A program made the translations under genes and the position numbers. A DNA stretch of 64,000 bases from Obrimoposthia wandeli. Its lineage: Eukaryota. The stretch is taken from assembly GCA_977020255.1 (NCBI GenBank), contig CDROCS010005195.1, positions 62,001-126,000 of the forward strand. Reading direction: 5' to 3'. Within the stretch, counting starts at the first letter, position 1, and the number at the start of each line of letters is the position of its first letter. The notes below the pieces were generated by a model. It ran no database searches. It was not told the origin of the DNA and saw only the letters and a program-made list of their open reading frames with translations. Shown here piece by piece: positions 1-63,392 of this stretch.

Positions 1-2
1 CA

Positions 3-3000
3 AATATACAAAAAATTACAAGTACCAAAGAAACAGAAAATGCGGAATCTTCACAATATCCTGATTTAGAAAAATATATAGATAAAACAACTATAGAAAA
101 ACCAACTGCACCAACAATATATACAATAAATCAAAAAGATAACGACAAACGACCATATGTAAAAGTAGAAATTAACGAATATAAACTTAAAGCTTTAATT
201 GACACAGGATCAAGCGTAACAGTTTTAGACGAATCTTTCTTAAAAACACAACAAAAATTACTTCTTATTAAGGAAAATAGTCAAGTCACAGCAGCAAACG
301 GTCAACCCGTAAATATAATAGGAAAATTAGACTTTTTTTTTAAAATAGGAAATAAATTCATAAAAATTCCTACAAGAATCATGAAAAATTGTCCTTGCCA
401 AATGATCATAGGAACAGATACATTAAGAAAATTAAAAAATAATTTCCATTTTGATTTTGAAAAAAATCAAATAAAATACATTTACAGACCTAACGCCAAA
501 AATGAATACGAGTTAGAAATAAAAGGAGATATCATTCTCCAACCAAGAACAGAAACAATGTTACAACTAGAAACTAACATAATCACAGAAAAATATGTAT
601 TATTTGAACCTTATAAATATCAACAAGAAACCTTGAACTACGTTTTGCCAAATATAATTTGTAAAATAAAAAACAACACAATACCAATCAGAATCCTAAA
701 TGCAGACATTAATGAAATTCATCTCAAGGAAGGAGTACGTCTTGGAAAAATAAGTGTTATTGAAAATATTGAATTAATAGATAATGAAAAAATAGAAGAT
801 AAATCTACGATAAATTTTAACGATATCAAATTAAATGATTATGAAAAATCAAAACTTAAAGCTTTAACAGAAAAATTTGATGTAATATTTGCTAAAAATG
901 AATACGATTTAGGTCGAACAAATTTGATAAAACATAATCTTCCGTTAATAACAAACACAGCAATAAAACAACGACCCTACCGAATTACATATGCCTACAG
1001 AGATGAGGCTCAAAGACAAATAAAAGGAATGTTAGAAAATGAAATTGTTAGAAGAAGTTTTTCTGCATGGACATCACCTGTTGTTTTAGTTAAAAAGAAA
1101 GATGGTTCTTTGAGATTTTGCGTAGACTACAGAAAACTAAACGAAGTCACTCACAAAGATACTTATCCACTGCCAAGAATTGATGAAATATTAGACAAAC
1201 TAAAAAATGCAAAAGTATTTACAACTTTAGATTTACAGAGTGGATACTGGCAAATAGAAATTGAGGAGTCAGATAAATATAAAACAGCTTTCTCAACAGG
1301 AGATGGATTGTATGAATTCAATGTCTTACCATTTGGATTAACCGGAGCTCCAGCAACATTTCAGAGATGTATGAGCCATATTTTAATGGATGTAGATCAT
1401 GTAATGGTATATATCGACGACATTCTTATTTTTTCAAAAAATTTTGAAGAACATTTAAAAGATTTAGAAAACGTATTCTTAAGATTACAGGTAGCAGGAT
1501 TAAAACTAAAACCAAAGAAATGTGAATGGATAAAAGATAAAGTAAATTACTTAGGACATGCTGTATCAGCAAAAGGAATACAACCAGACGAGAGTAATGT
1601 AGAAAAGATTAAAAATTTTCCGATCCCAAAAACAGTAAAAAATATACAGGAATTTTTAGGGCTTGCAAGATATTATCGTAGATTTATTAGAAAATAGCAA
1701 TACCATTAAATAAACTTATTAAAAAAGATGAAAAATTTGAATGGGAAAAAGAACAACAAGAATCTTATGAATATTTAAAACAAAAATTAATCGAAAAACC
1801 TATACTTAGATATCCTAATTTTAATAACTCATTTTTAGTTATGACTGACGTCAGTGGTTATGCGTTAGGAGCAGTTTTAGGACAACAGGAAAATAACGAA
1901 AAAGATCATGTGATAGCATATGCGAGCAGAGGTCTTAAAAAACGTGAAAAGAATTACTCAACGATAGAAAGAGAATGCCTAGCTATTTGCTTCGCAATGG
2001 AACATTTTAAACATTACTTATTAGGTCGAAAGGTTTATGTTTACACAGATCAAAGACCATTACAATGGCTTTTAAATCATAAGGATACAACATCTAGATT
2101 AATGAGATGGGCATTGATTTTACAAAAATATGATATTGAAATAAAATATAGAAAAGGAAAATCTAACGCTAATGCAGATTGTCTATCACGAATAAGAGAA
2201 GAAATAAACGAAATAACTGCAAACGACATCGAATTAAATCTGTTTACAATAATTCAAACTAAATATGATGAAAAAGTAATTACTAAACTTCAAAGCAAAG
2301 ATAATGAAATTCAGCAAATAACTAAATACATTAGCACAAACGAAGTACCAACAGATGAAAAATTAAGAAAACATTTAAAAATTCACGAATCACGATACAA
2401 ATATAGTAATGAAATATTATATTATTTAAATGACAAAAATCTATATTCACTAGTTATTCCTAAAGAAATTCAGTGTCAATTACTTCTTCAATATCACAAT
2501 GGAGCGCTAGGGGGACATTTATCATCAAAAAAGACACATTCACGATTAAATTTAAAATAATATTGGATTGACACGAAAGAAGATGTAAAAAATTGATGTA
2601 AAACATGTGAAATATGTTTTAAACGGAAAAATACTTTACGTACCACAAAAATACCTTTAAAACCAATTCCTTATCCATCAGCCCCCATGGAAACTGTTGC
2701 CATGGATGTAATGGGACCATTACCTGAAACACCCCGCGGAAATCGATATATAATAGTATTTTCTGATTATTTTACAAGATGGCCAGAGGCTTTTCCAACA
2801 CATGATCATAAGGCTGAAACCATCGCGAAGGGTTTAGTCGAAAAAATTATTTTTACTTTCGGTGCACCCCGAAAATTATTAACCGACAAAGGTCCTGAAT
2901 TTATAAATAATGTATTAGCGTCAATAGCTAAAATTTTTCACATAAAAAAGATCAATACAACACCATATCACCCTCAAACTGACGGGCTAGTAGAAAGATT

Positions 3001-3590
3001 TAATAGAACCCTCGAAGATATGATGGCATCATACACAAACAACAACAAAAACAGATTGGGATTTACACATACCTCCATGCCTTTTTGCATATAGAACATC
3101 AGTACATGCATCCACAGGAGAAACACCTTTATATCTTATGTTCCTCAGAGATCCTCAAATGCCTATTGACCTAACATTACTACAACCTACTACACAATAC
3201 TTAGAAATACCTGAATACAAAATAGAAATTAGAGAAAGAATAAAACTAGCATTCGAAAAAGCTAAACTATTTGTAAAAAACATACAAGAAAATTACAAAG
3301 AATATTATGTTAGAAGAACTAAGCCATCAAATATAAAAAAGCGGAAGTAAGGTGATGATTCACAATCCACAAATTAATGTAGGATTGTCACACAAATTAT
3401 CAAAACCATACAAAGGACCATATACAGTCATTAGTACCAACGGAACCAACATAACAGCTAAACTAGATAATGAACCAAAATCAAAAGAAATAAGAGCACA
3501 TATAAACAGATGTTGAGAGAAATACCTGAGGAGAATACAAAAGTAAAAAGTCACAAATATAACTTAAGATCAACTAACGATAATACTGTT
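3..3590 (+). mobile_element. Ty3/Gypsy retrotransposon pol (PR-RT-RNaseH-IN), degenerate, 5'-truncated by window edge
   Basis: Frame open from 3 to 1697: protease LIDTGSSV (~195), RT motifs YPLPRID, LDLQSGYWQ, PFGL, YIDDILIFS. RNase H TDVSGYALGAVL/YASR/IERECLAI (1841-2560). Integrase HNGALGGH...CKTCEIC, DVMGPLP, TDKGPEF, YHPQTDGLVERFNRTL, GPY motif (~3415). Several stops and frameshifts. Domain order PR-RT-RH-IN is Gypsy. Confidence 0.96.
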
Positions 3591-3640
3591 CTACAAATAT
3601 TGACAATAAAAAACTCACATAAAAACAAAATAAAACTATT

Positions 3641-4873
3641 TTGAGTCATCAAACCAGAAATACAATAAAAATGTCAATGAAAGAAATTGATAAAATAATG
3701 ATGTTATTGATAATATATTTTACAATAAAATATAACCTACTGAAAGTAAACGCAACAAACATAAATGACAATCAATCAATCATACAACAACAAACAAATA
3801 AATACGACTCAACAACTCATCTCATAAATTTTTTTTGATTAATAACAATAATACCTGAAATCACATCAATAAAGTTAAAAATTTCTCTTCTTACAAACAA
3901 AACAGGAAATGTGCAAATCACACAAACAGATAGAAAACAAAATATAATTATTTCAGGAATAAAATCACAAAAATATACAATACCATTTTTAAGAACAGAA
4001 ACACAATATAAAATAAGAATTAAGTCGAAATTAAAAAATATAACACTCTATGAAAGAATTATAGAAACTCACATATACCTAGCATCAATATTAAAAACAA
4101 CAGCAAATTATATATCAAAACATAAAATAATGATAAAATGGGAATTTCAATTAAAAATAGATGATTTAGATAAAGCCCTCATTAGAATTAGATATAGAGG
4201 AAATAATGCTAATTTTTGGAAAGACTCAGAAAAACAATTAGAAAATACACAAACTAAAACAAATTTAACCATAGAAAATATAAGATATCCAGAGAAAATA
4301 ATTATGGATAATAGAGAATGCGTAATCACTAATAAACCAATAATGTACAGACAATGGAGTCAAAAGTTTGAAAGTTATAAAAATCTAACAAAATTAACAA
4401 ATTTAGGAAATAATATATCCAAACTATATCAACCTACAATTTTTTGTGGTCGTTGGTCAGCAGTAAAAATTAAGAAATATGTCAAAGAAACAACCACAAA
4501 ACAAATACTACATACCACAGCATTTACATCAAAGATTTACAGAGTTACAAATCAAGTTGAAATCACGGAGAAAATGAGAATTAAATTAAAATTAAAAACA
4601 ACAAAAACAATATCCTATAAATCATTTAATGAAAGTTTAAAAATGCACTATGGTAAACAAGAACATTCAAGGAATGAAGATAAAAAAGAACTTATAATAA
4701 TAGTTATAGTAATCGAAATAATTACATTTATAAATCAAATATCATGGAGAATTTTAATTTTGAAACATACAAAAATGATCGAAACAAAACAACGAAAACA
4801 CTTTTGCGGCTCCCAGGCCCTTTTACTAGTTATATTATTCCTAAGGATGAGAATTCTTCAGAATTATCCATAA
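3641..4873 (+). pseudogene. env-like / membrane protein ORF3 of the Gypsy element (one in-frame TGA at 3836-3838)
   Basis: ORFs 3641-3838 and 3911-4873 share one frame. N-terminal hydrophobic signal-like segment (IMMLLIIYFTIKYNLLKVNA), FN3-like string YTIPFLRTETQYKIRIKS, C-terminal TM-like ELIIIVIVIEIITFI. Lies directly after integrase. Confidence 0.6.
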
Positions 4874-5117
4874 ATACTGTAATAGAAAATAGGAAGGGAA
4901 ATATGACACAATAATCAAAATTTTTTAATAAAACCATTTAAGTAACAAATAATGTTAGTACTATTACATAAATCTAAATTAGTTTGGAAATAGAATAAAT
5001 ATTAATAGAAGTTAGTTATATGTGTATTTTAGGGAGGATTTAATGAAAATAATGTTAAAATAAAATCACCAGGAAACGCATCCTGAAATTTAATAATGGT
5101 TATTTTTAGACATAAAA

Positions 5118-5511
5118 ATGAACAGATTGGCAAAAGTTTGTAAAAAATGCAAAAAATTAGAGAAGAAGATTCGAGATGTTTCCAGACAGCATGACGACTA
5201 CTATATAAAGATCACAACTCAAAATGAATCACTGAAACAAGTAATAAAACAAAGTGTGGAAGAAAAATTGAATAATGATTTGACAATTGACGAACTAGAA
5301 GGAAGGTTGACACATAGTTTTGCAGAATAGACTATTTAATACAACAAACTTTAAGTCAACGATCAACTATAGCCTCATTAAGAAGACAAATGATGACCTA
5401 TAGCGACATGATAAACTTTTATATGACCATAAATCCTACTATCCCAACTAATACAACACTTGATGATGGATATGACTCGGATATGAACATTGGTGAACAA
5501 AACTCTGGTTA
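5118..5511 (+). pseudogene. Coiled-coil-like accessory ORF of the Gypsy element
   Basis: ORF 5118-5330 with CKKC and heptad-like LEKKIRDV...LKQVIKQSVEEKL; appears to continue after a stop/frameshift to ~5511. Same strand and A-rich composition as the element. Confidence 0.4.
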
Positions 5512-5681
5512 AACCATAACCATACATCCTTCTTTTGTACAGATTGTCTAAATTTTATTAGTAGGTTTATTTTTATGACAAATCCCACATACTGCATGTA
5601 TAAGACTGATATTTTTATAACTTTAAGACTGAGAAATAATTATATTATTTATTCAACTAACAAATTGATTAAAGCAGACGA

Positions 5682-6734
5682 ATGGATATCGATCACCTGG
5701 ATACGACTCCAGACCAGGAGGAGCTCACTCAGTCAAATCAAACAAAAAGCACAGCAAAAATAGAAAGAGGAAAATCGGAAAATATGCCAGAAAGGTGGTA
5801 TTTAGCAAAATTCCTTTATCAAAAGATGCGTCAGTTTAGTATTGCATACTTTAGAAACAATGGAGGAAGAAAAATGTTTTCAAATCAAACATTTCTTCCC
5901 AATTAGTTAAAAATTACCACAGAGGAAAGAACAAGCGCACTTATTTTTTCCAATGAGAAAAGACCAACCCATATGGCTCTCAGCGAGTTATTCTCCGATA
6001 ATAATTGTGAAAAAATAGATATTCACGTGGCACTAGAAGTAGCCCATTTAAAAACCAAATCAGATAAGACCTTAAACTTTCTGATGATAGGAAATCATAC
6101 CTACACCTTACAAGCAGCTCAATTAGAAAATCAATATAGCATCAAAATAGGAAGAGAACCAAATCTATTATTTATAGAAAAAATAAGAAAAGCAGAAGAA
6201 CCTCAACAAATAGCCCTTTTTGAATTAAAAAACGCACAGAAACCAGCAATTTTGTTCCTCGATTGCGAAATGGTGATATCAGTGGATAAACAGCCAGTTT
6301 TAGCAAGTGTTTCTATTATAAATTACATAGGCAACGTAATTATAGATACACTGTGCGTAACTAGAGACAGAGTAAGAAATTACGTTACTAGAATAACTGG
6401 ACTGTCAGATAGAAAGTTACAAGGATGTAGAGATGCTGATGAAGTAATTGAGGAAGTAAGAAACATTGTGTAGGTGTGTTTCATCATCGTAGGTGTGGGA
6501 CTAACAAACGATTTAAAAGCTTTACGCCTACAGAGATGGATGTTATTCAACATTGTTGATTTGGGAAAATCTAAAAGCATAAAAGCAGAACTAAATCACA
6601 ATCACCCAAATATTGGACTCGCCAACATGGTGCGAAAATACTTAAATGTAGAAACACAAAAAGGAGTCCACACTAGCATGGAAGATGCAAATCACACCCG
6701 AAAAATTTTCATAATGAAGGAGGAAATGTTTTAA
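5682..6734 (+). pseudogene. DEDDh 3'-5' exonuclease (REX4/ISG20-like) cargo gene, two in-frame TAG stops
   Basis: ORFs 5682-5906, 5973-6473 and 6474-6734 share one frame (351 codons). ExoI FLDCEMV (D at 6261), LASVSIIN..G.V..D, TRITGL, ExoII NDLKAL, ExoIII HTSMEDA (H-x4-D). Confidence 0.88.
6716..6726 (+). other. Polypurine tract (putative PPT)
   Basis: GAAGGAGGAAA immediately before TGTT at 6727. Confidence 0.55.
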
Positions 6735-6879
6735 AAGAATAAAAAAAAAATATATATATATAAAAAAATTAAAAAATAAGAATTAATTAATTAAGGAATT
6801 AATTAAGAACTTTCCTTAATTAGGGAAAAGTTCTATTTAGATAAAATATGCACTTTGGCATTTTAGTTTACAGTTGTTA

Positions 6880-6931
6880 ATCTCCGACGGGAAAAAACCC
6901 CGTTTCGCCCTGCCGGGCTCATCAGGGAGAT
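6880..6931 (-). ncRNA. Type I hammerhead ribozyme (canonical core, GUC cleavage site)
   Basis: Minus strand: AUCUCC-CUGAUGA-GCCC(GGCA)GGGC-GAAA-CGGG(GUUUUUU)CCCG-UC/GGAGAU. Complete CUGAUGA and GAAA core, 4-bp stem II, stem III, 6-bp open stem I. Predicted cleavage between plus coordinates 6886 and 6885. Confidence 0.92.
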
Positions 6932-6934
6932 GGC

Positions 6935-6982
6935 TTGTTATCTCTAACTTCGCGGTGGATTCCGCGAAGCCAGAGATAACAA
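6935..6982 (-). other. Long RNA hairpin immediately 5' of the hammerhead
   Basis: UUGUUAUCUCU-GG-CUUCGCGG(AAUCCA)CCGCGAAG-UU-AGAGAUAACAA: 21-bp stem, continuous on the minus strand through two G-U pairs. Confidence 0.8.
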
Positions 6983-7508
6983 TAATAAAAAGCCAGGGAA
7001 AAGAAGGAAAGATTCCCCCTTTCATGTGCCGACGAATATCAACGACATGTGATGTTGGTGTGCGTAAATTGCACAATTCAACACACACATACTCACACAG
7101 CAGACATGACATAAACCTACTCACATCAACTTACATATTCTACTCATATCCTACTCACTCATTCTCATTCATTCTCTCATTACTCACTCACTCACTCATT
7201 CTATACTCGACATGCTCTCTTCCATTTTGTATTACTTCCTGTGTGTGTACATGCATGGCTATTTTGAACATTTTCCCTCTGCCCAGATGCATTGCAACCT
7301 GTCTGGTGTGTGGGTGTGTATTGGGTTGTTGTTCAGATGAATTTCCTCTCTGCCCAGATCCGCTGGCTGGAAGCAGTTTGGCAGTATGGTGCATGTATAC
7401 TGCGGATCGGCTGATGCTGTGGCGCATTCGCATTCGTTCGGCGAGATGTTGTTTTGGTATAAATACCAAGTATATAAAAATATTATTTGATAAAACAACA
7501 ATTTGACA

Positions 7509-8290
7509 GAAACAGAATTTGAAACTGAATTTGAAACTGAATTTGAAACAGAATTTGAAACTGAATTTGAAACAGAATTTAAAAACTGAATTTGAAACTG
7601 AATTTGAAACTAATTTGAGACTGAATTTGAAACAGAATTTGAAACTGAATTTGAAACTAATTTGAGACTGAATTTGAAACAGAATTTGAAACTGAATTTG
7701 AAACTAATTTGAGACTGAATTTGAAACTAATTTGAGAATGAATTTGAAACAGAATTTGAAACTGAATTTGAAACTAATTTGAGACTGAATTTGAAACAGA
7801 ATTTGAAACTGAATTTGAAACTAATTTGAGAATGAATTTGAAACAGAATTTGAAACTGAATTTGAAACTAATTTGAAACTGAATTTGAAACTGAATTTGA
7901 AACAGAATTTGAAACTGAATTTGAAACAGAATTTGAAACTGAATTTGAAACTAATTTGAGACTGAATTTGAAACAGAATTTGAAACTGAATTTGAAACTA
8001 ATTTGAGACTGAATTTGAAACAGAATTTGAAACTGAATTTGAAACTAATTTGAGACTGAATTTGAAACTAATTTGATTTTGAAACTTTGAAACTGAATTT
8101 GAAACTAATTTGAGACTGAATTTGAAACAGAATTTGAAACTGAATTTGAAACTAATTTGAGACTGAATTTGAAACAGAATTTGAAACTGAATTTGAAACT
8201 AATTTGAGACTGAATTTGAAACAGAATTTGAAACTGAATTTGAAACTAAATTTGAAACTGATTTTTGGAACTGATTTTTGAAACTGAATT
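7509..8290. repeat. Minisatellite of 11-12-bp monomers with a 47-bp higher-order unit
   Basis: Monomers GAAACAGAATTT, GAAACTGAATTT, GAAACTAATTT and GAGACTGAATTT repeatedly occur in that order; decays at the right end. Confidence 0.95.
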
Positions 8291-8837
8291 TTATTTTGCA
8301 ATTTGTTTCGGATTATGATTTTTATCAAATAAATATTGTTTGGAATATTGGACTTCTTAACAATATTAAGTAATAATGATTCTGTACAAAAACGAGTAAA
8401 CTTAGAGTTGTTTGTCATACTAATGTCTACTCATCAGGGGGGTATTGTCTTTTCATTGATGATATGTGATGCGTAAAATGATGTCATTATACGTATTTAA
8501 TCGTATTGTTAAAATATCAATAGCATTGATATATGTTACAAGGATATTGATATTATGACATTGATTGATGTGTGAGTAATCTGGGGGGTACTGGCCTGGA
8601 GCCCTCATTAGGGTTTTACTGCTTAATTTAACAAAAGCTAAAAGATTACATATTATGTCACCTTCATGCGTGACTGATAAAGCTTCAAAATATAATCAAT
8701 ACGTACTATCTCTCATCTAACATCTCTCAATACGTAATAAATGGTCAATGTCACATAAATCAATGATATATGTAACAGTGATTGACAGGTGACAGGTGAC
8801 AGGGATACTGGTCCGGAACCCTCATATCCAGCTACTC

Positions 8838-10500
8838 CAAGAAATCATTAAATCTAAAAATCGAGGTAAGAATAAACAATTTTACGTTAAGTGGTACGGA
8901 TATAAAACACTAACATGGATAAAAGCGAACCAGATAGAGTAAAAAAAATATATTGTATTACCATCTAATAGTTGTCCTGATAATACTGCATCGAAATTTA
9001 TTGTTGATTGGGAAAATCCAATAGAACTTCAAGGTGTATGGAAAGTTGCATTGACTGAATTTACTTATAGCAAAACACCTGTTATTTTACACAAGGGTGG
9101 TGAAATTAATTATAAGACATAAATAACAATTGCTTAAGATATGCATACAGTTTATACAAAAATACTTATTAAAATGTTATGTGGTGACCCACAATAAAGA
9201 ATAATAGTTTAAAAATATTAATTAATTTTATGTAAAATTCACCTTTTTACGAATAACATTTTAAAGAAAGATCTTAGATAAAAATCTGAACTACATATAA
9301 ATTAGTAATGAAATATCGTATTAAGAAAGATCCACAAAAATGTGATTTTTGTTAATTAAAATGTTAATTAATTAAACTTTAAAGAAGAATTTCTAGACAT
9401 CTAAAAGTAGCACATAAATGAACAAAACATCATTTTCAAGCATAACCTATTTCCAATTGAAAAATGTACGGCTCTTCAAAATCCCACCTTTGGGTAAAAA
9501 GTCCTATAGTATAAGAAATTACATAAAACTTTACAATACTAACAGGCAAACACACATATTAACGGGTTATCCGATGGAACCTAAGTGGGAAAATTATCTA
9601 AATGACCAAATCCCATTTAGATTAAACAAATCTAAATCAAAGCCCAGCCAGGAAGACCCGGACACAGCGTGTAAATGAGAAAGTATATAAACCCTAAATT
9701 TTTGAAAATAAGATAGATTGTTTTATGCCAACGCCTCCAGTTCGTTCTTTAATTTGCTTATTTTTATTCTTTTTATGTTATTTTATCACCACCATCGCTA
9801 TAATATTTATTTATTTTTTAATTTTACGTAACTCTGAATAATTGTTGGTCCCTGGTCATTGTTTAATGTAATAAAATTATATTACAATTTTTTGTATTTA
9901 ATAAAACCCACTAACAAAGTGAACTTTATCGATTACTTTATACTAGAACAATTTAAATTATTAAATTAAAAAGGCTATAATGAATTTGAAAAATATTGAT
10001 AACAAGTGTTTTCTCTATGCTATCCTTAGCGTGTTAAAGTATAATGAAGTTCGAAATAGACATCGACAAACTTTTTATGGTCGATATTTAAATGAGTTAA
10101 AATGTCAGCCTGGGCCTATGCCATTAGCCTCAATACCTCAATTTGAACGTGATAACCAAATAGCAATTACAGTTTTTAAAAATTTTGAAATTAACATTAT
10201 GTATTTTAAAAATGATGTGTTGAAATATCCTGATGTTAGTATAATTTACCGAACAAAACTACTGGAATGTAATAAAATTGTTAATTCACTTTTGATAGAA
10301 GACTGTAAAACTTATCATTATTGTGGTGTTCCTAATTTAAATAGATTATTTAATTGTCATAGTTATGGTTTATAACTTTACTGGTGTCCGAAATGTCTTT
10401 TTGGTTTTCGAACTGGGATTTCTTATGATAAACATAGAACCCATTGCAATTTTAATACTGATACTACAACATTATTCACTATGCCGGATGATAAATATTG
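8838..10500 (+). mobile_element. Maverick/Polinton remnant (integrase chromodomain, capsid-like ORF start, pPolB N-terminal region)
   Basis: 8838-8942 QEIIKSKNRGKNKQFYVKWYGYKTLTWI (chromodomain). 8949-9120 YIVLPSNSCPDNTASKF...IELQGVWKVALTEFTY, resembling the Polinton minor capsid N-terminus. 9980-10450 NLKNIDNKCFLYAIL...QFERDNQIAITVF...HY...NLNRL...CPKCL...HRTHC. Confidence 0.72.
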
Positions 10501-51795: not shown

Positions 51796-53137
51796 TCAGT
51801 TTGTCTCTCCGGCAGCAGTAGCTGGTTTCTTCTTGTTCTTGATGGGTTCTGCTAAAACGGCCTTGACTACAGCACTCTGGATTTTATGATCTGACTGGTA
51901 GATGCTGGAATCAAATGGCAACCCCGTCAACCGCATAGGGCCATTTGGCATCAGCAGCACCGTGTACTTGAAGTGGGCTACAGATTCTCCTTCCTTCTCA
52001 AACATGACCGGCAGAGCATCCACGAGACCATGTTTACAGCATTCAATGACAGCAATTTTAGCCTTTGTCTGATCCAAGAACGAACGAAGAGTGAAGGGAT
52101 ACCCCACATACTTATTGGTAACATCACTAAAGAATTCTAAAAAGAAAATTTGTAATTAGAATTAAAAAAAGATACTTACGCCTTGAAGCCTTCAGCTTTA
52201 GATTGTACGTATCCGCTCCGATATTTCTTTTATATACAGTAGTCTTTGCATCACGTTCTTTCACTTTGCCATCTCCAGATGTTACAATTACATCAACAGT
52301 CCAAACTTGATTGACTTCGAAATTAACCTGTTCTGCACTCTTTTTTTGTTCTTCGGAGGGATTAACACTAAAAGTCTTTGCATTTTCATAGATGTCTTTC
52401 TGGAATCCATTGACAACACAATCTAAACAATAATATTGTATCTCATGATTGAAACTAACTTTCTAAAACTTTGCATTCAAATTCAGCCGCTGTATTTATT
52501 ATAGGTTCAGAAACGTCTTTGTTCTATATAATTTTAAAATTATACATGTGGCATATTAATCTTACATTTTTTCCTGGTTTAATTAATCGCAATGCAGCTT
52601 CAGCGCAATTATATGCAGCTAAAATAGCGTCAGCCTTGCGACCAGCAATTTTGTTATCTTTTGATGCTCCTACAACAAATGTGTGACCAACAACAGCCGC
52701 ATAACCATCAACTTGGACACCAACATCACTTAATATATCATTAAAATAATTGCAGTAAATAAATTATACATTTTAATCATATCGTTTTTCTCGATAATCT
52801 CGTCAGTTTGATCCAGAAGAGGTGAGAAGTTGCAGACTACATTATTACGGGAGATGCATGTTGGAAACGCAACACCCTTCTTGACATCTTTGTCTTTCTT
52901 GAAAATTTTAGCAGTCTCTTCCGCAATTCTGTCATCACCAAAAATGCAAAGACTCAGTACACTTGATCCAGGTTCGCATTTTTTAATGAGTTCCTTCAAA
53001 ATTTCTAGAATTTTTTAAAATAAAAGAGAAAACAATGACTTACTCTGTGTAATTTCAGCCGACATTTTATATTTGTTTAAGATGGTATCATCTTCCAAAT
53101 TATTTAATTCGACATCAGATTCACTATCGCTGGACAT
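51796..53137 (-). CDS. PA2G4: Proliferation-associated 2G4 / EBP1, 6 exons, 379 aa
   Basis: Exons 53137-53044, 53004-52770, 52728-52566, 52523-52460, 52422-52180, 52136-51796. GT-AG introns of 39, 41, 42, 37 and 43 nt. Motifs KGVAFPTCIS, DVGVQVDGY, YPFTLR, EGESVAHFKYTVLLMPNG. Confidence 0.97.
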
Positions 53138-54360
53138 TTTCGATAAAAACACACTTAATTTTCAAAAACGGTGGTATAATATTTGATTTAAACAAAAGTA
53201 GAAAGTATTGGATAATTTTAATAATTAACAAGAAACTGATTTGCTCAAATTAACGTATTTTCGATTTAATTTAATTCATTTTAATTTAAAACACAAAAAA
53301 ACTTCAGAAATAAAATTGTTTGTCGTGTTCATGCACTAATAAATTTTACCAATATTGCAGATTGATTTTTTTCATTATTTTCAATTTTTATTATGAATAC
53401 CTTTTTTGCTTATTCAAGAATTAGTAATTACTGTTTATGGTTCAATTATTAGAGTTATAAGGTTTTAAAAATACATCAAAATATACATTCAGAATAATCT
53501 ATATAAAATATTTATATAGTATGAAATATTTAATTATAGATTAAAAACATTAAAGAAGACATTTTCTAGAATTTAATAAAATTTATTTAAAATTAATTAT
53601 GATTATTTTGATAAAATAATTTAATAAATAAAAAGATTTTATCTTTGAAAGAAAGTGCTAAGGTCTGTAAATTTATGTTTTTATCAACAATCTTTACTTA
53701 CATATTCCTAGAATTAAAATAAAAGAGTATATATATATTATTATTATATAATTAAACTTACTTTTTGGCAAAAAATATAAGTATTATTACAATTTACTGT
53801 TAAACTTTTTATTTTAAAATGTGTTTCAATAATTAAATGTATAAATTGCTTATAATAACTATAGAAAATTGTATTATTAATTTTATAATAAAACTTTTAA
53901 TATTAGAGCTTTCTTCTTTATTTCGACGGCTGTTTTTCACTATCAAATTTACTTAATATAATTAAGCTTTTTAATTAAGTTACTAAATCTAAAAAGCTTT
54001 CTGATGTTAAATTTAAAAAGACAAGAACCTTTTAGATATTATTCATAATTCCAAATTTTAATGTAAGAAAATTACGGTGTTTGAATTTTTTAAAAGATTT
54101 TTTGAATTTAAAATGTTCGGTACATCCCACACTGCCAGTTCTGTTTACTAAAATTGGCTCACTAGCTATTTGTATTAAGCTTTGTGATTTCAATAAAGAA
54201 ATCCACACATCTTAACCATTTAAAGTTTGAAAATAAGTTAAGGTATTTTTAAATTTATTTCAAACTAACCAATACTTTTTGAATAAATTTTATTTCTGAA
54301 CAATTTTTATCTATAGTCCAAATAAAATTTTATAAATACGTACAATTATAAAATAAGACT

Positions 54361-54795
54361 ATGGCACCAATTCGCAAAGGAAAGAAGGCTCCACCTCAAG
54401 GTTGGGAAATGATTGAGTCGACGATTGAGGAGTTCAAGAGGGAAATGAGTAATGCCGTGGCAGATCCCCACGAAGGTAAGCGGAAGGTGGAGGCGATGTG
54501 GCCAGTTTTGCGAATCCATCATAAGAGGTCGCGGTTCATATTTGACATGTTCCACAAACGCCAGTCGATCAGCAAGCAGCTGTACGAGTACTGTTTGCAG
54601 GAGAAGATCGCGGACAAGATGCTGTTGGCCAAGTGGAAGAAACAAGGCTACGAGGGTCTGTGCTGCCTGGCCTGCATCCAGCAGTCAAACACGGCCTTCA
54701 AGACCAACTGTATCTGTAGAGTCCCCAAATCCAAACTGGAAGAGGGCAAGATTGTAGAATGTCAAACTTGCGGATGTCGCGGATGTTCTGGCTAA
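54361..54795 (+). CDS. BUD31: BUD31/G10 splicing factor, intronless, 144 aa
   Basis: [62 protein letters not shown]. Confidence 0.98.
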
Positions 54796-55239
54796 CTTCG
54801 TACCTGCCTTTTTGATACTGAATTACTGGCTGTAATACATAAACTCAATTGCTGTATATATATTTTTCATTGTATTTGCCATCTTTTTGTTTTAGCGTGT
54901 TAAAGTAATATTTACCACATATTTGTCAAAATGGATATAAGCTTCTTAAAACCTCCTTTCCAGATCAACATGTTCTAGCATTAAATTCTTTAATTAGTTT
55001 TATTTATTAAAAATTTTGTAAATACTTTTTTTTTCTTGTTGTATCACCACTTCCATTTTAATAAATCTCGGAGTTTGTTGAAAGTTTGTAGCGCAATGTG
55101 AAAATCCTGTGATTAAGTTTGAAAGATGTGACATTTTACTTTTCATAAAATTATAACATTTTAGTAATTCATGAATTTATATTCTTACACAATTTATGTT
55201 CTACTCCACCTTTGTGAGATTTATTATAACTATCTAAAT

Positions 55240-58200
55240 ACGAGATAGAAAACGATAGTCAAAAAGAACCGGTCGGTGGTCATATACTTCATGGCACACC
55301 AAAAAGACTCAAACAGGAATACCATGATGTGATAATGGTATTACGCAATTCACACGGGAAAAAAGATATAATGAGAGTTCATTTGATCGACGCTGAGACA
55401 AAAAAGGTAATATGTCAGATGGTCACAAAATACTTTGATGGAAAGACCATTGTATGTAATATACCGGTAACTCACTAATTAAAAACATATCAAACAGAAG
55501 TATCTGTAAAGTTGAGCGTAATAGAAGGATTTCATTCGCCAACCCAACCGGAAGTAACAAACAATAAAATCGTTAAAGCAACGGCAGAGTTACGCATTAA
55601 CAGCAGATACCGAAAGTGGGAAGCTAAAAATAAACCACAAAGAATCAATATGATCAGAGAACAAGCGACAAACTCAATCCAGCCAAAATATCATGTTGAA
55701 ATAGTAATATCTGCGCCAAGTGTGATTACATCGATAAACGACGAAATTATAATTTTACTAAAAAATCGATGGCCATCATCGACCGAGATACGAGTCAATT
55801 TAGTGAATTATGCGAAAACACCGATATCTAAGCTGAATGTCACCTATTTCGATGGATTGTCCATCATGGGTAAATTGGAAACAATCGTCATGTGCTAAGG
55901 AGCACAGTTCCAAGTTGAGATACTTAAGGATAGTGTAATACCGTATCCGATTCACAGAGACTCAGGACCAGTCAATCCAATTATTCTAACCCCTTCATTA
56001 ATTTCAGTTCAAACAAACATACCAGAACACCCTTCGAGCGAGTCTACTCAAGACAGTGAACCTGAAAGCAGCGATCCAGAGTCAACAGAATCCAAAGATA
56101 ACATAATAGAGCGATTCGGAAGAACCATGGAGGTTGAATTTGCTAAAGATAGCAGAAAAATACGAAACATGGACTTCGTGAAACAGAATATACAAGAAAG
56201 GCGAATTAAATCCGCAGAAAAGACCGAGTCGGAAGAGGAACTAACAAAGGAACAGACATCAGAGACAAAGATGAATATCTCTCCAGCAATACGAATGCTG
56301 AGAGGAAAGAAACTGGCGAAATTATTCATCATATATGAACAAATAGAGAAGCGATTAGAAAGACTAAAACTTGAGGAGTCAGAATTGATGCCACCAATGA
56401 GTGAGATAATTCCAGATATGTTATACCTCGGAAATGTGGAAGACGCAACAGACGAAAAGAAACTGTTGGAAAAAGATATAACATATGTGATCAATGTTAA
56501 AATGAATCACGAATTGCGATACCAGACAATCAGAGCTATGACATTAAGAGTGAAAGACTCAATGGAGGCTAATCTTCTCGAATGGTTCGGAGAAACAAAC
56601 GATATAATTTACACAGAACTCCAAAACCAAGGAAAAGTATTGGTACATTCAGAAAGGAATCTCTAGTTCAGCAACCTTGGTATTAGCATATCTAATAAAG
56701 AGTAGACGAATGCAGGTACTAGAAGCGCTGAAATATCTACAAGAAAGACGAAGTATCGCGAACCCAAACCTTAATTTTTTGAGACAATTGTCAAATTACC
56801 AACTCCTGTTGCAAGAACTGAGACGGATGGATGACATTCCCGAAGATCCAAAGGAAAAGAATTTCCTCCAATCACTATCGTTGACCAGATTATTCTTAGC
56901 AGGAGTCGACAAAATCACCCAGATAATGCCGAAAGTATTTATATGTCACCCAGGAGATATAGATACTGCTGGATTAAAGTTCCACAGTATCAACCGAGTA
57001 ATTAACATTGTTGAAGTTGAAAACGAGATAATCAGTATATGTCAAAATACTGAAGATGACACTACACGATATATACATGCTTCAAATCGGGAGGTAAACG
57101 ATGCACAACAATACCTGAGGAAGTTGACTCAAACAATCCAAGCCGAAGTCACAGAAGGAAACGGCGTTCTGATATATCAGAAGAAAGGTACAATGTTAGC
57201 GCCTACCATAGGTGTATCCTTGTTGGTAGAATACCATGATCATACACCAGAGGAAGCGATGGTATACATCAAACAGAATAGACCAGATACGGAATTCAAA
57301 CCGTTACTCGTTCGAGAAATAAAGAAATACTCCGAAAGAAGGAAGCAACAACAAGAAATGAATGAGGTTACAACAACAGTGCCCAGCTATCAGTACCGAA
57401 GATTGCTAGCACTAGGCTTGTTAAGTTGTCTAATGCCAACAACGGGAGCACAAGAGATAGGCTCCAACCACGGAAATAGTTCCTGGTTTAAAGAAATCAA
57501 CAACTACATCATGCAGTACAATACACCGACGCTGATGATTCTATTAGTGTTGATAGGACTGATCGATGTTTGGCTAATCAGAAAATGTTTCCGATCCATA
57601 AGAACCGACAGAGAAAGATTCCAGTTTGTAAAAATGAAGAGACCAAACGGACCAACAAACCAGGTACTTGTTTATCTAGACGAAAGGATCGAGGAGAACA
57701 TAGTGAATGAAGCGATATATTATCCACAAAACAGACTACTGAATCAATTCCGAATGGACTACGAAGCTGACCGACAGCACACACTTGATAGAATATCAGC
57801 AACGTTCGCAGGATGCGGGCGAAGAAAACGAATTGTAAAGGAAATACAAAAAGATGCGGATACAAAAGGTACGACGTATATATTTGACGGCGATGTCATC
57901 AAAACACGTGAGTATGGAAGTAAGAGAGTGATAATCGAAACGAAGGAAGGACATAAAACATGCTTGTCCACCAAAAATGGATTCAGAAAGCTGGTGATAC
58001 AAGGCAAACAGGTACAGTTGATTATAGGAAAAACCGGAATCGAAGAAATGTCAAAGCAACGACAGACAACCAAGACAAAACGGCATAACCAGAAACAGAT
58101 ATATCTCAAACGAATAATAATCAAAACTGTTTGCAAAAGGACAATCAAGGCCCTGTGCACTGTTGCACAAGGATTGATCTACGGAGTAGAATTGGATTGG

Positions 58201-59726
58201 TACTACAAGCCATTCCAACCGGTAAAGCGGAATTGATGACACTAGCTGAATATAATCTATTTTTGAGAAATCTAGACAACACCCTAGAAATAATCAAGAC
58301 GTCTCACAGTAAAGCCGTGATGATCATGTGTGTGAAAGGATGTTCAGAACGAGTATGTATAATACCAGCGACAGAAATGAAAACACTAAATGGATATTAT
58401 GGAGTTAGTGTTGTCACATGTGAAGGATACACATTTGGACAAACTAAAATAGTACTTCTCAGTGACATGTCCAACCAAAGTACACATAAATTTAAAATAT
58501 TAACCATCAAAAGTAAAGGGATACAAGCAATACGTTATGGTATTCTAGAATTGGTTAATCCAATACTGGCATTGATTATCGGAATCATAATATTAATATT
58601 ACTCATCTTGTTTTGTTGTACAAAGATCGAGTTGAAATCAAAAAAGAAACGTCACGATCTCGCAAGATGAACAGGTCAAATGAATTTACAAAAATTAGAC
58701 ACAACTATACCAAGGCCAGCATTCATAAATGAACCAGCACCGGAGTATCAGCCAACGATATATGAACATATCGAGGAAAGACCGTACTTCATGAGTAATT
58801 TGGGTTATCTCAGAGAAGTTCCTGAGATCCGAACCCGAACGATAATAGGAATCATGCTGATCATACAAATCACCACGACCGAGGTTGGTTGCGAGATCAT
58901 GATCAGCAAATGGAGACAAGATACGATACGTGCGTTATACATAGAAATACCTCTACTAAAAACGAATCCCATAGTAGACATTCAACTACAAACATCCGCA
59001 ACCGAAAATGTCAATCAGAAATTGTATGTAATCCGCTAGATTGAAATAAAGATTGACAAACATACACTTTACTACCGACTGATACTATTTTATTATGAAA
59101 AGGTATTATACCTACGAATAACAATATCAAAAAAGAAACGGATTATCCAAATTATCCGAACAAAGTCTGTAATATTGCCCAACGACGAGCGCATCTGGAA
59201 AGTTATTGACAGGATTATGGTCACAGATAAACGACGTAAAACTGTATGGAATTATGTTAATTTATTCTTCAGATTGTTAGAAACTGACCAGGTAACAGTG
59301 GCGTGTCCCAATCCAGATGACGGAATCAAATTCGCAATACAACCCCAAATGTTGGTACCACATTATGATGCAGAATGTCTATGTAACCGAATCTCCAGTA
59401 ATGCTAAAGAGACCTCTACCGTGATCATAGTAATAACAGGTCAAATATTCTATATAACTCTAAGATACCAGACACATCGATTTCGTGGACTAGGTATGAG
59501 CATCAGACCCAATAAATTCAATTCCGGGAAACCAAACACAGTCATAAAGAAGGCAAAGGTGAAAGGAAGACAACTCCATTCCGAGAAGCCAAAAGCAGTC
59601 ATAAAAAAAGACAGAGGTGAAAGGAAAAGAGCTCAAGACCAGAAACCAAAGCACAGTTATCGAGAGGACAAGAGCGAAGGGAACGATTCCACTGGATCTC
59701 AAATCTCGAATAATAATACCCTTTAG
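55240..59726 (+). pseudogene. Decayed multidomain polyprotein cassette: Ig/IPT-like region, two tandem DUSP-like domains, signal/TM segments (probably retroelement cargo)
   Basis: 55240-56666 is one frame with two TAA stops. DUSP1 SEIIPDMLYLGN...ITYVINV...GKVLVHS[fs]GISSSATLVLAYLIK...A...LQERRSIANPNLNFLRQL. DUSP2 ITQIMPKVFI...RVINI...NGVLIY..KG...APTIGVSLL...EEAMVYIKQNRP. TM-like LMILLVLIGLIDVWLI and LALIIGIIILILLILFCC. Later ORFs are linked by stops or frameshifts. Confidence 0.72.
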
Positions 59727-60065
59727 ACAAAAAACAAAATATCCGAATCCGTGATTTATTAGAAAATCAGACATAATACACGGAAACCGAACAGCACCAC
59801 TTGAAACGCCATCCAAACCGACAAACATCAAAATAAAGTACTATTACCAATCCTCAGACAGCGGGATAACTACAGTCAATGCTTTAATTGTAATGGCCGT
59901 AGTTTCAACTGCAGTAGTTCTATTTACAGTCGTGTGCATGAAAGGCAGTCAGATATTCCCAAGAATACGACGAAGATGCAAAGAGCTACGATGCTGTAAT
60001 ACACCCATGATGGAAGAAGTGGAATTGCGACCCTTACCTCCGCCTCCCATTAAGACATGACAAGT

Positions 60066-60800
60066 CAGAGGAGGTTGTAGATAAATTAGTGTGTAAATAT
60101 ATGTAGAGATATGTAGAAGCGAATGTACAAACAAGTGTCGAATTATGTAAAATTCATGTAGAAATTAATTGTCATCGTGTATTTAAGTAGGTGGATGTGT
60201 CCGGTCTAATCAACACCCCCCTCCCCCCTACTGTCCTTTAAAACCGTGCATGTGTGTGGAGTGAAATTTCGTGTAGGTGTGTAGAAAAATTTTCTACCCC
60301 CCTCCCAAACACTAAAAAAAAAAAAAACTCCATATAACACCCTATAAATTTAAAAATCTCATAATGCTCCCAAAATTTTGATTAAGGTCCTGAGAGGCCA
60401 AAAAATTTGGGCCCGCGGTGGATCAACGAGTAATAAATACAGGCTCGCGAAAATTTATACGCGAGAATATATTTTTCGCGCCCTGCGGGCGCGAAAAAAT
60501 TTTCCTTATAAAAATTTATATCCATACATACATACAAGGTCATAAAAAAAAATTTCTTTATAAGAATTTATAGGGTCGCAAAAATTTTTAAATAATCAAC
60601 TACATAAATTCGAAATAATTTTCATTTTTATTTGATGAGTCATCAAATTAGTCATCATGACCTTAAATGATCTTGACCTCATGATGACCTAGACAACTTT
60701 GTACCCTTGACCTCATGATGACCTTGCCCTCATGATGATGACCTCATAAGGTCATGACCTTAACTTGACCTGAAATGAGTTCATGATTTTTTTATACCAT
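60066..60800 (+). repeat. Element terminus copy B (PPT-like AGAGGAGG then TGTAG; conserved blocks; GC hairpins; TGACCT cluster)
   Basis: Purine tract before TGTAG at ~60076; blocks 60186-60211 and 60231-60266; hairpins 60444-60465 and 60472-60498; eight TGACCT plus one AGGTCA in 60658-60771. Confidence 0.7.
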
Positions 60801-60969
60801 CCAAACATGTACAGTCAAAAAATATTACTATTTTAAATCCAAAGACATACATGTATTCAAACATCAACAAAATTTAAGAAAATACCATAAATTCTTTGAA
60901 TAATACGTTTTCATTGGACGTTAAACTTATACAACAAAATCTTAAGAAAATCTTAAGAAAATAGTTTTA

Positions 60970-61222
60970 TTTTCGAATAAAATATGTTTTATCCAATGAC
61001 ATTCCAGCATTCAAACATAGTTAAAAAATTGAGAAAAGCCTACTGATTTTCAAATAAATTATTTGAATAACCCGCTATTGGACGACAAAAGTTTAGTGAT
61101 ATATTTTCGAATAAAATATGTTTTATCCAATGACATTCCACATTCAAACATAGTTAAAAAAATTGAGAAAAGCCTACTGATTTTCAAATAAATTATTTGA
61201 ATAACCCACTCTCATTGGACGA
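60970..61222. repeat. Direct duplication of ~118 bp
   Basis: TATTTTCGAATAAAATATGTTTTATCCAATGACATTCCA...TGAATAACCC...ATTGGACGA at ~60970 and ~61103. Confidence 0.92.
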
Positions 61223-61312
61223 TAAAAGAGGGTTAGTCTATTATTTTTGTATATAAGGAAACCTCTTTTCATTATTTTTCATAAATCAAATATCATCAAT
61301 CAAGAAGCAAGA

Positions 61313-63392
61313 ATGTCAAATTTCAATAACGTCGATTTGGATGAAGAGATGGAGGTTCAGCTGTATGGAGATCTCTCTCCAGTACAGCAGCGAACGCCAC
61401 CACCGGCGCAGTACATTGACTTACTTAGTCAAGACTCGTCAGTGGTGAGTGAAGGAGACGAAGGAGAAGCAGCAGCAAGAGCCCAACTGTTGCTAGAAGA
61501 AGAACCGCCATTGGCCAGCTCAACTCCAAGAGAACAACCAATGAGCGTGCGAGGTGGGGTACAGAGATCCCAATATATCGATCTGACTAGTCAGGATTCG
61601 ATAGAGAATTGGGAAGACTGTACTCCCAGGCTGAACATAGAAGCCAATCGTCCGGCAACTTCAGCAGTAGCAGCAAGGAGATCCAATCTCTTCGACAATT
61701 TTGAGGCGGCAATCAAATGCCCCTGGAAATTGATCCCGCTGTCTCAACCGGAGATAATACTGGCACCAGACTCAGACGAGGAGCTGTTTACTGATGACGT
61801 TCCGTCGGATGGGGAGGAGGAGTGGATACAGCCAAGTATCGGAGCCCCGGGAGCCAACGAGTCCATGGTTGCAGAAATGGATGAAGATGAGTGGCATCTG
61901 TTCACTGACGAATGGGATGGTCTCACTCCCTCTACAACTCCGACCCCGATACCCAACAATACAGTGCCTGATCCATTCAGAAGGCCACAATCTCCAATAC
62001 GTCCTGTTAGGAGAATAAAGGCGACGAATGAGGTTAGAAATCATTTATTTAAAATGTTTTTTAATTTTATTTTCAGAAACTGCAACTTGATTTGGCACCG
62101 TCAGTGACCACGATTGAGAGGCAAATTGAACCGCAATACTTGGCGAGTCAATGTAGCCAGGATGATCCCAGGAGTGATTAGAGATACCTACCAACTCCGG
62201 CTAAAATTGAGGTATATTATTATAAATTAGTAAATTTATTTAATTATTCACTTAGGAAGCTGAGTTGGTGGAGGAAATTTGGGAGGAGGCATCTCGGAGA
62301 CTACCTGTCGATAGGAAGCAAGCGGCAGTTAAGAAACCTCGACGTCATCGAATCAAAACCAATACGGTCCATCGGAAGAAGGCCAAGTTGGTGAAACAGG
62401 CTAATCTGCCCGTCATCGAGGTAAATTATTTATATGTTTAAATTTTATTAATGTTTTTTGTTGTTGCAGGAACCAATAATATTAACTGAGGAGACATGGG
62501 CCAAAATTTCTCCTTTCCCGCAGAAGCGAACGAGGCAGGCTACTGTACAGAAGACACGGCGTCTTAGAAAGGCAAAATCCTGTCTGCTCAATTCGAGTGA
62601 AGTAACGATTGAGCGGCAGGAAAATCTTCCGTATAAGATTATTGAGGTAATTTTTTGTTATTTTAAATATATTTTTAATTAAATAAATTTTATTTTTGTT
62701 TTCATTTGCAGGAACCTGTCCGGATAATTGAGGAGACTTGGGGAGAAGTTACTCCTTTCCCTAAGAAAAGGACAAAGCGGGCAGAGGTGAAGAAGACGAG
62801 GCGCTCGAGAAAAATTCGGACCTCAATTGGCCATTATTCTGAAGCGGTGATTGGCCAGCAGGAGATTATCCCTCCTCCAATGGACAACGAGCCTATCCTA
62901 TATGAGAGGATCCCAGTCTCACCAATCGAGATAAGTCCGCACTCGAGTCAACAACGCCTGCAGGAGACTGCTTCTCCTCGTCCAACAACCAGCCAAAACT
63001 TGAAGAGGGCCTGGGATGACGCTGGTTTGGACGAATTCCTGGCGGAACTGGATACACCGGCAATGCTTCCAGATTCGCGTGGGCAACATGATGCCGTCTC
63101 ACGCCAGCTTCAGCGCGAGAAGGAGGAGAAACAGAAGAAAGCTCCGCGGAAGAGGAAAGCTACTGCTTCTATGTCGGGGCCATCAACATCGGCTGCACCT
63201 CCTCCCAAATAGTTGCGGCAACTATTGCCAAACCCGAGGGAAGGACAATTGCTGTACAGCAACCGGTGAAGCCGACCAAAGAAGAAGGAACCAGTACCAC
63301 TTTCTCCTATCAAAATAAGTCGGAGGGAATACGACCCGGATGATCCCAATGATGACTTAGCAAAAATGTTCAAAAATATAATTTATAAACAT
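61313..63392 (+). pseudogene. Spliced gene for a low-complexity acidic/basic protein with three homologous exons; disabled
   Basis: Exons 61313-62032, 62077-62211 (contains in-frame TAG), 62256-62420, 62470-62646, 62712-~63392 (frameshifts after 63209). Phase-0 GT-AG introns of 44, 44, 49 and 65 nt. Confidence 0.7.

Follow-up and report, generated by a model that had tools for sequence, protein, structure and literature searches.

An env-bearing Ty3/gypsy element of Obrimoposthia wandeli with an antisense hammerhead motif in its long terminal repeats and an AlkB-fold/ISG20-like nuclease as cargo

An antisense type I hammerhead in both LTRs

The 5′ end of the 64,000-nt stretch of Obrimoposthia wandeli DNA analysed here (the window; contig CDROCS010005195.1, positions 62001-126000, in an AT-rich genome of 1.35 Gb) is the 3′ part of a broken, high-copy Ty3/gypsy element of ~13 kb with a gag-env-pol layout. 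A type I hammerhead motif in antisense orientation in both of its long terminal repeats (LTRs) is the main novelty, the cargo it carries is also undescribed, and the backbone is known. Assignment to Ty3/gypsy (Metaviridae) was based on domain order and Pfam matches, and the 5′ part of the element was found in an upstream stretch of the same contig (L001, positions 52001-62000). The window copy belongs to family A; a second family, B, was discovered via a solo LTR inserted in one family A copy. The features of the window copy are listed below.

3-428, plus strand: env linker and aspartic protease (PR) with DTGS motif (Pfam gag-asp_proteas, E = 1e-8); the frame runs on upstream into env and gag
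1089-2131, plus strand: reverse transcriptase (RT) and RNase H (RVT_1, E = 9e-40; RT_RNaseH, E = 5e-39), with a frameshift near 1691-1697
2456-3516, plus strand: integrase (IN) with zinc domain, core and GPY/SH3 tail (Integrase_H2C2; rve, E = 7.5e-13; SH3_Tf2-1, weak), with several stops and frameshifts
3623-4914, plus strand: post-integrase extension, broken here, which shares an open frame with the integrase GPY motif in 10 of the 23 loci that hold both
5118-5512, plus strand: small coiled-coil-like open reading frame (ORF) of ~130 aa, split in the window copy by a frameshift near 5318-5330
5682-6730, plus strand: predicted AlkB-fold domain (cupin/double-stranded β-helix, DSBH) and ISG20/REX4-like DEDDh 3′-5′ exonuclease, interrupted by stops at 5904 and 6471 and cut short by a 3′ deletion
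6729-8362, plus strand: 3′ LTR, ending TTAACA, first ~26 bases gone; partner 5′ LTR at L001:4077-5141
6877-6934, minus strand: type I hammerhead, antisense to the element
6935-6982, minus strand: 21-bp hairpin directly 5′ of the ribozyme, present in family A and absent from family B
7509-8291, no strand assigned: 12-bp satellite in the 3′ LTR, 66 copies (TRF), of which only ~190 bp occur in the 5′ LTR
8363-8366, plus strand: target site duplication (TSD) ATAT, equal to the 5′ flank

An antisense hammerhead in the LTR had been proposed in an earlier note made from the sequence of the window, and its strand (minus, 6877-6934) and canonical core were borne out. The Rfam match is to the type III model (E = 0.25, under the gathering threshold), which is not the model of its type, since the topology itself is type I. 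Stem I has 6 bp, stem II 4 bp with a GGCA loop and stem III 5 bp with a GUC triplet, and with three helices and an open helix I around CUGANGA, GAAA and NUH all core positions are canonical. The predicted cut site lies between 6886 and 6885. An invariant GCC immediately 5′ of stem I could pair with the GGCA of loop 2 as a pseudoknot, a contact for which no covariation was seen.

Position 7 is known as the one hammerhead core position that tolerates change. A tight pattern run over the whole genome matched 2,923 sites carrying U7 and 2,667 carrying a different base there, ~5,600 in all; only 21 had a change at A6 (counted in the U7 background only), and reversed controls gave none. All of the first 30 matches were LTR-internal, 115-210 bp from a TGTTGGG-type start, in three cases with a single mismatch, and none was found in a tandem retrozyme array; for these sampled matches the ribozyme as a free retrozyme repeat was rejected. 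Between one family A LTR and one family B LTR, each ~1.1 kb, the ribozyme was the sole significant local alignment (41 bp, E = 4e-9), the LTR sequence diverging right at the motif edges and loop III being freely swapped. Across 13 representative rows 96.9% of cells were paired and four pairs change on both sides, compared with 34-52% of cells in slid controls, and the G-U pair of columns 15-59 is valid solely on the antisense strand. These patterns argue that the motif is very probably under selection as a ribozyme.

Two other accounts of the motif were weighed on the same evidence. A retrozyme or Penelope fragment could have entered an ancestral LTR as a passenger and been kept alike by recent recombination instead of function; animal repeats often contain type I hammerheads (PMC7229834, in the parts covered), recombination between the mosaic families is real and distant metagenome relatives lack a hammerhead. 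Conservation that ends at the motif edges, replaced loops III, compensatory stem changes, bulk variation at the tolerant position 7 alone among core positions, and the LTR location of all 30 sampled matches outside any tandem retrozyme array make this account improbable. It is more improbable still, to the point of being hardly credible, that the motif is constrained as a DNA-level or sense-RNA signal (promoter, packaging or strand transfer) and is merely hammerhead-like. Such signals are expected in an LTR, and the sense strand folds well too (z = −4.6), but the core, the GUC, three covarying helices, the antisense-only G-U pair and the tolerance at position 7 fit the established hammerhead consensus.

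Several observations weigh against the explanation given below, in which the ribozyme cuts antisense RNA. The covariation counts rest on few related lineages. The position-7 variants, which include at least C and A on each of the two stem II backgrounds, were amplified by descent, and the 2,667 matches are therefore not independent events. The ribozyme stood in the expected place in 8 of 20 stretches picked by env, plus one shifted, and stem III is damaged in the ribozyme of the window element's own 5′ LTR. Seven metagenome loci that encode relatives of the element's nuclease, some of them with an apparent LTR, showed no hammerhead by regular expression, Rfam or our own model. Because of this last result the nuclease and the ribozyme are not an obligate pair, and the ribozyme looks like a gain in the host lineage, not a clade-wide trait.

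Further LTR lineages with related hammerheads and different stems were found at L091:7454-7700 and in L040, both with the TGTTGGG start, and in L041, which has an additional older degenerate copy upstream. Just outside the 3′ LTR of the window element, at 8410-8445 on the minus strand, lies a degenerate hammerhead-like stretch (CUGAUGAG ... no G12) to which our own model gave no score.

Architecture of the element and its envelope

The order PR-RT-RNase H-IN with the GPY/SH3 tail was matched by Pfam at 3-3516, as the earlier reading of a Gypsy pol had it, and pol is broken by stops and frameshifts in the window copy. A search with the putative LTR returned a 97% identical partner 12.6 kb upstream, and the TSD ATAT flanks both element ends, so that the 5′ LTR and TSD proposed as a check on the element were both found. 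L001 contains this 5′ LTR (TGTTGGG start, TTAACA end), followed by the primer site; it also encodes gag, which has CCHC-type knuckles, and a class III fusion glycoprotein. The 3′ LTR, previously drawn at 6727-7500, is real, but it ends at 8362 and includes the 12-bp satellite at 7509-8291. What had been taken for a polypurine tract near 6715-6727 is nuclease coding sequence beside a ~370-bp deletion, by which the window copy lost the end of the nuclease, the genuine pre-LTR tract and ~26 bases from the start of the LTR; in the copies inspected for it, the LTR is preceded by just a short C-run plus GGAGGA or AGGA.

The LTR-to-LTR distance is 12.6-13.8 kb across full-length pairs. Thirteen LTR pairs were tried and eight resolved, six with an exact 4-bp TSD and the remaining two with one mismatch, and the best LTR-LTR alignments were 92-99.8% identical. 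LTRs so alike, with TSDs still matching, point to recent expansion. Copies that are nearly identical vary greatly in the 3′ half of the LTR (909-1,661 bp) and in its tandem repeats, and the ribozyme end is retained. The primer site matched the 3′ end of tRNA-Arg(UCU) plus CCA over 13 nt in 4 of 11 copies, over 8 nt in five and over 5-6 nt in two. A tRNA-Ser/Pro/Arg cluster was found repeated in 3 of 10 tRNA-pattern loci (L104, L106, L107).

The true env encodes a class III fusion glycoprotein (PF24664; E = 1.6e-43 and 4.7e-66) and lies between gag and pol, upstream of the window. The earlier note had regarded the post-integrase ORF as env-like; that ORF gave zero fusion-protein matches in Pfam or PDB, and its candidacy as the envelope was rejected. 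A virus-like, cargo-bearing Gypsy was thus correctly described with respect to its DEDDh nuclease and LTR hammerhead, but with the envelope in the wrong place. A word-indexed protein search with longer forms of env was without matches, which is weak evidence only. At the start of env, L001:7815-8161 holds a ~340-bp DNA-transposon-like insertion bounded by terminal inverted repeats and flanked by an 8-bp duplication, which we take to be a hAT-like MITE.

Of the loci holding both motifs of a junction, a single open frame spans gag-env in 3 of 12, env-PR in 7 of 11, PR-RT in 7 of 11 and IN-extension in 10 of 23. Two metagenome relatives have env, pol and extension as single frames of 3,012 and 3,207 aa. 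As the junction motifs share open frames, the element may encode a single polyprotein in which signal and transmembrane segments lie internally, and signal peptidase together with the viral protease would process this gag-env-pol-membrane product.

By hydropathy the post-integrase ORF comprises a signal-like hydrophobic segment, a beta-rich ectodomain, a stalk, one transmembrane helix and a short tail. The top atlas leads for the ectodomain were all fn3 (0.89 and 0.88 in two divergent versions, under the 0.9 bar), the Pfam fn3 match was weak (E = 0.17) and a single-sequence structure model reached a pLDDT of 33. It is likely a membrane protein, with FN3 as a lead for its ectodomain, and would likely serve as a surface or virion attachment protein. 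Its dN/dS between families A and B is 0.47-0.70, and it evolves faster than pol. The small coiled-coil-like ORF, also anticipated by the earlier note, is present; its Pfam coiled-coil matches are sub-threshold only, and family B has a counterpart of ~100 aa in the same place with 29% identity.

The nuclease cargo and its linkage to pol

The co-oriented accessory ORFs that had been noted after the integrase (3623-6730) end with the nuclease. The DEDDh signature, D-x-E, D and H-x4-D on an RNase T fold, is present in the window copy (D at 6261, E at 6267, D at 6510, H at 6669 and D at 6684), and an uninterrupted natural copy with D-E-D-H-D intact matched RNase_T (E = 7e-7) and ISG20 (E = 9e-9), in line with the DEDDh exonuclease first proposed. 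A structure model from a 21-sequence alignment (pLDDT 89.8) placed residues 154-316 on ISG20 (Z = 22.5, rmsd 1.8, 158 aligned), TREX1 being also among the fold matches. Residues 4-135 were matched to Ofd2 (Z = 10.8, rmsd 2.8) and ALKBH6 (Z = 10.7, rmsd 3.0), with 127 aligned. As modelled, the N-terminal domain is an AlkB fold (DSBH) fused to an ISG20-like DEDDh exonuclease. P38, H80 and G84 are its sole near-invariant residues in the 21 aligned sequences and the HxD...H metal triad is not conserved among them; the AlkB-fold domain probably just binds nucleic acid. Against an active exonuclease throughout the family stands the third acidic residue, which is altered in several relatives; for this reason some of them may be inactive. 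In family B the C-termini (L079, L082, L092) carry a VID(L/I)TSSDSED tail, presumably resembling a phospho-SUMO-interacting motif.

A HMMER scan of 1.84 billion proteins gave relatives spanning both halves of the protein, nine of the ten clusters that were looked up being unnamed or almost entirely so. A word-indexed protein search gave no match for nuclease relatives, which is weak evidence as the HMMER scan did find some, and the viral contigs scanned contained no nuclease relative. In a midpoint-rooted tree of 68 exonuclease domains (the top 60 matches and eight of our own sequences, with long branches), all 28 two-domain proteins fell within a group of 33 rows, split with 100/100 support from 35 other REX4/ISG20-like proteins. 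Between families A and B the nuclease is 42-44% identical, compared with 90% for RT, with dN/dS ~0.2 and dS near saturation.

Among the seven metagenome loci with nuclease relatives, two have the nuclease directly after the 3,012- and 3,207-aa env-pol frames, which end in the membrane extension and have an RT identity of 61-63%. Since such env-pol relatives carry the same nuclease, this cargo is a deep clade feature. At two metagenome loci (L075:300-3999 and L077:54-1845) the same nuclease is preceded by RING E3 and TRAF/MATH ORFs, and the zone after pol is on this account a variable cassette.

Within the genome, a nuclease DNA query gave 946 candidates, and the 39 other copies scored were 97-98% identical. 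Nine of nine further fetched copies, picked by cargo, had the cargo followed by the LTR, with RT upstream in six. The next 9.9 kb of 20 copies picked by env contained RT in 18, the post-integrase ORF in 17 and the small ORF and the nuclease in 15 each; the nuclease was present in 14 of the 18 with RT. Conversely, 20 copies picked by the nuclease had the post-integrase ORF (20/20), the small ORF (20/20), IN (18/20) and the ribozyme (19/20), and gag, env, pol, post-integrase ORF and nuclease were all present in the five full-length family B copies examined. Chance juxtaposition of cargo and pol, which would show as other copies lacking the cargo or this LTR end, was rejected on samples picked by env, by LTR and by nuclease, in which the same cargo and LTR recur. 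Families A and B are mosaic, with a dS of ~0.16 for IN, of 0.6-1.1 for gag, env and RT, and close to saturation for the nuclease, and differences this strong among element segments show that recombination between the families is real.

Known systems, possible function and significance

Flatworm elements with a gag-env-pol layout have already been published (PMC13524379 and PMC6431247, in the parts covered). GAG-ENV-POL 'ancient errantiviruses' with a HSV/gB-type env were described in Platyhelminthes, Nematoda and Bryozoa (Chary and Hayashi 2026, PMC13524379), and the portions covered share with the present element a Ty3/gypsy pol, a class III env between gag and pol and multiple copies. Cysteine spacing and many motifs of the Smed_errantivirus_1 ENV are common to the env of the window element in a by-eye comparison, a resemblance that makes a planarian flatworm the probable host. 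The main text of that paper makes no mention of an exonuclease, fibronectin or ribozyme, the parts covered do not describe a post-integrase membrane extension, an AlkB-fold/DEDDh ORF or an LTR hammerhead, and six S. mediterranea rows are without a listed LTR or primer binding site (PBS). The Burro/GYPSM1 elements are alike in an env in frame with gag and pol, several CCHC-type knuckles, one long polyprotein and accessory domains, but are 25-30 kb with BIR, BCL2, MATH and ankyrin cargo, whereas the window element is ~13 kb with different cargo after the integrase; the Burro passages covered mention neither ribozyme nor nuclease (PMC6431247). BIR, BCL2 and MATH domains gave no Pfam match in the scanned ORFs of the window element family. 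Elsewhere in the window, dual-specificity phosphatase ORFs on the plus strand at 55899-58233 (DSPc, E = 1.7e-21 and 3.4e-10) are probably cargo of a Burro-like giant element, and short frames at 8943-9122 and 9965-10375 appear by eye as Polinton/adintovirus-type relics, with no Pfam match.

Bdelloid Juno/Vesta LTR retrotransposons and Terminons also combine a DEDD exonuclease with ORFs for coiled-coil and transmembrane proteins downstream of pol (Rodriguez et al. 2017, PMC5408684, portions covered). Their ORF3 is RNase D-like DEDDy (DEED), in contrast to the ISG20/REX4-like DEDDh enzyme fused to an AlkB fold described here, and the rotifer cargo replaces env, whereas the present nuclease accompanies a true env. 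An orchid Gypsy likewise has an AlkB-type accessory ORF, but its product is an active m6A demethylase (PMC9289625, as covered), unlike the exonuclease-fused domain without a conserved triad found here. Plant LTR retrozymes resemble the element in one hammerhead per LTR, a PBS, a 4-bp TSD and a Ty3/gypsy link, and differ in being non-coding, non-autonomous and provided with type III, sense-cutting ribozymes (PMC4918200 and PMC7761336, parts covered); the window element encodes gag, env and pol and has a type I, antisense ribozyme in an animal-like genome. Between them, the passages covered of PMC4918200, PMC7761336, PMC7229834 and bioRxiv 10.64898/2026.07.22.740005 describe LTR hammerheads in non-coding plant retrozymes and type I motifs in animal repeats said to be without LTRs. 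In the literature covered, with subscription journals, Repbase/Dfam and most supplements outside it, LTR hammerheads were not reported from any coding Gypsy or retrovirus-like element, and no antisense example was encountered.

Selection on the ribozyme is much better supported than any purpose for it. We consider it an evenly balanced question whether the antisense ribozyme cuts LTR antisense RNA and the nuclease trims RNA, the two together limiting double-stranded (dsRNA) and antisense RNA that would trigger silencing. In this scheme the LTR promoter would also fire backwards; it would be a GC-rich block with a TATA-like box at its end, ~500-570 nt downstream of the ribozyme. Alternatively, host read-through could enter the LTR backwards and cross the ribozyme. 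Two observations weigh against the scheme and make any limits of U3, R and U5 provisional, namely a strict TATA motif near 715-780 in only 5 of 8 LTRs and an AATAAA just past the hairpin in three family A LTRs. Antisense RNA would be cut co-transcriptionally within ~120-200 nt of the left edge of the LTR, leaving an uncapped 5′-OH nascent RNA that would be released or degraded before it could extend over cargo and pol, in the case of the 3′ LTR, or over the flank, in that of 5′ and solo LTRs, and the nuclease would degrade the 3′ ends of such antisense RNAs or of small RNAs. Antisense may be the sole orientation compatible with replication, because a sense LTR ribozyme would cut the genomic RNA.

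An active ribozyme could instead make defined antisense RNAs, short with a 2′,3′-cyclic phosphate or unit-length and circularised, that regulate the element or feed piRNA/siRNA as a self-restraint. Same-orientation ribozymes in both LTRs are the retrozyme arrangement (PMC4918200, parts covered), and the family A hairpin 5′ of the ribozyme (−50.7 vs −41.2 kcal/mol for its two strands, z = −7.9), which is antisense-favoured and has G-U pairs on the antisense strand only, could stabilise the 5′ product. Such a unit would however be ~12.6 kb and antisense, thus not primable at the PBS, while plant retrozyme circles are 600-1000 nt and sense, and the hairpin is absent in family B; self-restraint is on balance unlikely.

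The nuclease part of the silencing scheme has a stronger competitor. A nuclease unrelated to the ribozyme, acting in replication or in evasion of innate immunity by clearing reverse-transcription by-products or host RNAs, is a serious candidate, if a somewhat less than even one. Its family includes relatives without a ribozyme, ISG20 is the best fold match with TREX1 also listed, the family B tail presumably resembles a SUMO-interacting motif, and DEDDy ORFs proposed for rotifer elements offer an analogy. An independent nuclease would leave the ribozyme part of the antisense-cutting explanation intact, being compatible with it.

Taken as a whole, the reading that this is the first autonomous env-bearing LTR lineage in which a working antisense LTR ribozyme and an undescribed AlkB-fold/ISG20-like nuclease family form a counter-silencing kit is put just short of even. 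The AlkB-fold/exonuclease fusion is a deep accessory-gene family, unmentioned in the main text of PMC13524379. The element is a plausible autonomous source for LTR-plus-hammerhead elements, and its ~5,600 copies, which include natural dead variants, mean that the genome provides its own controls. Small ribozymes occur in non-LTR elements, Penelope elements and non-coding plant retrozymes, and antisense transcription is a main trigger of piRNA and dsRNA defences. If the ribozyme cleaves, it would give the element a protein-free control of antisense transcription from its own bidirectional promoter.

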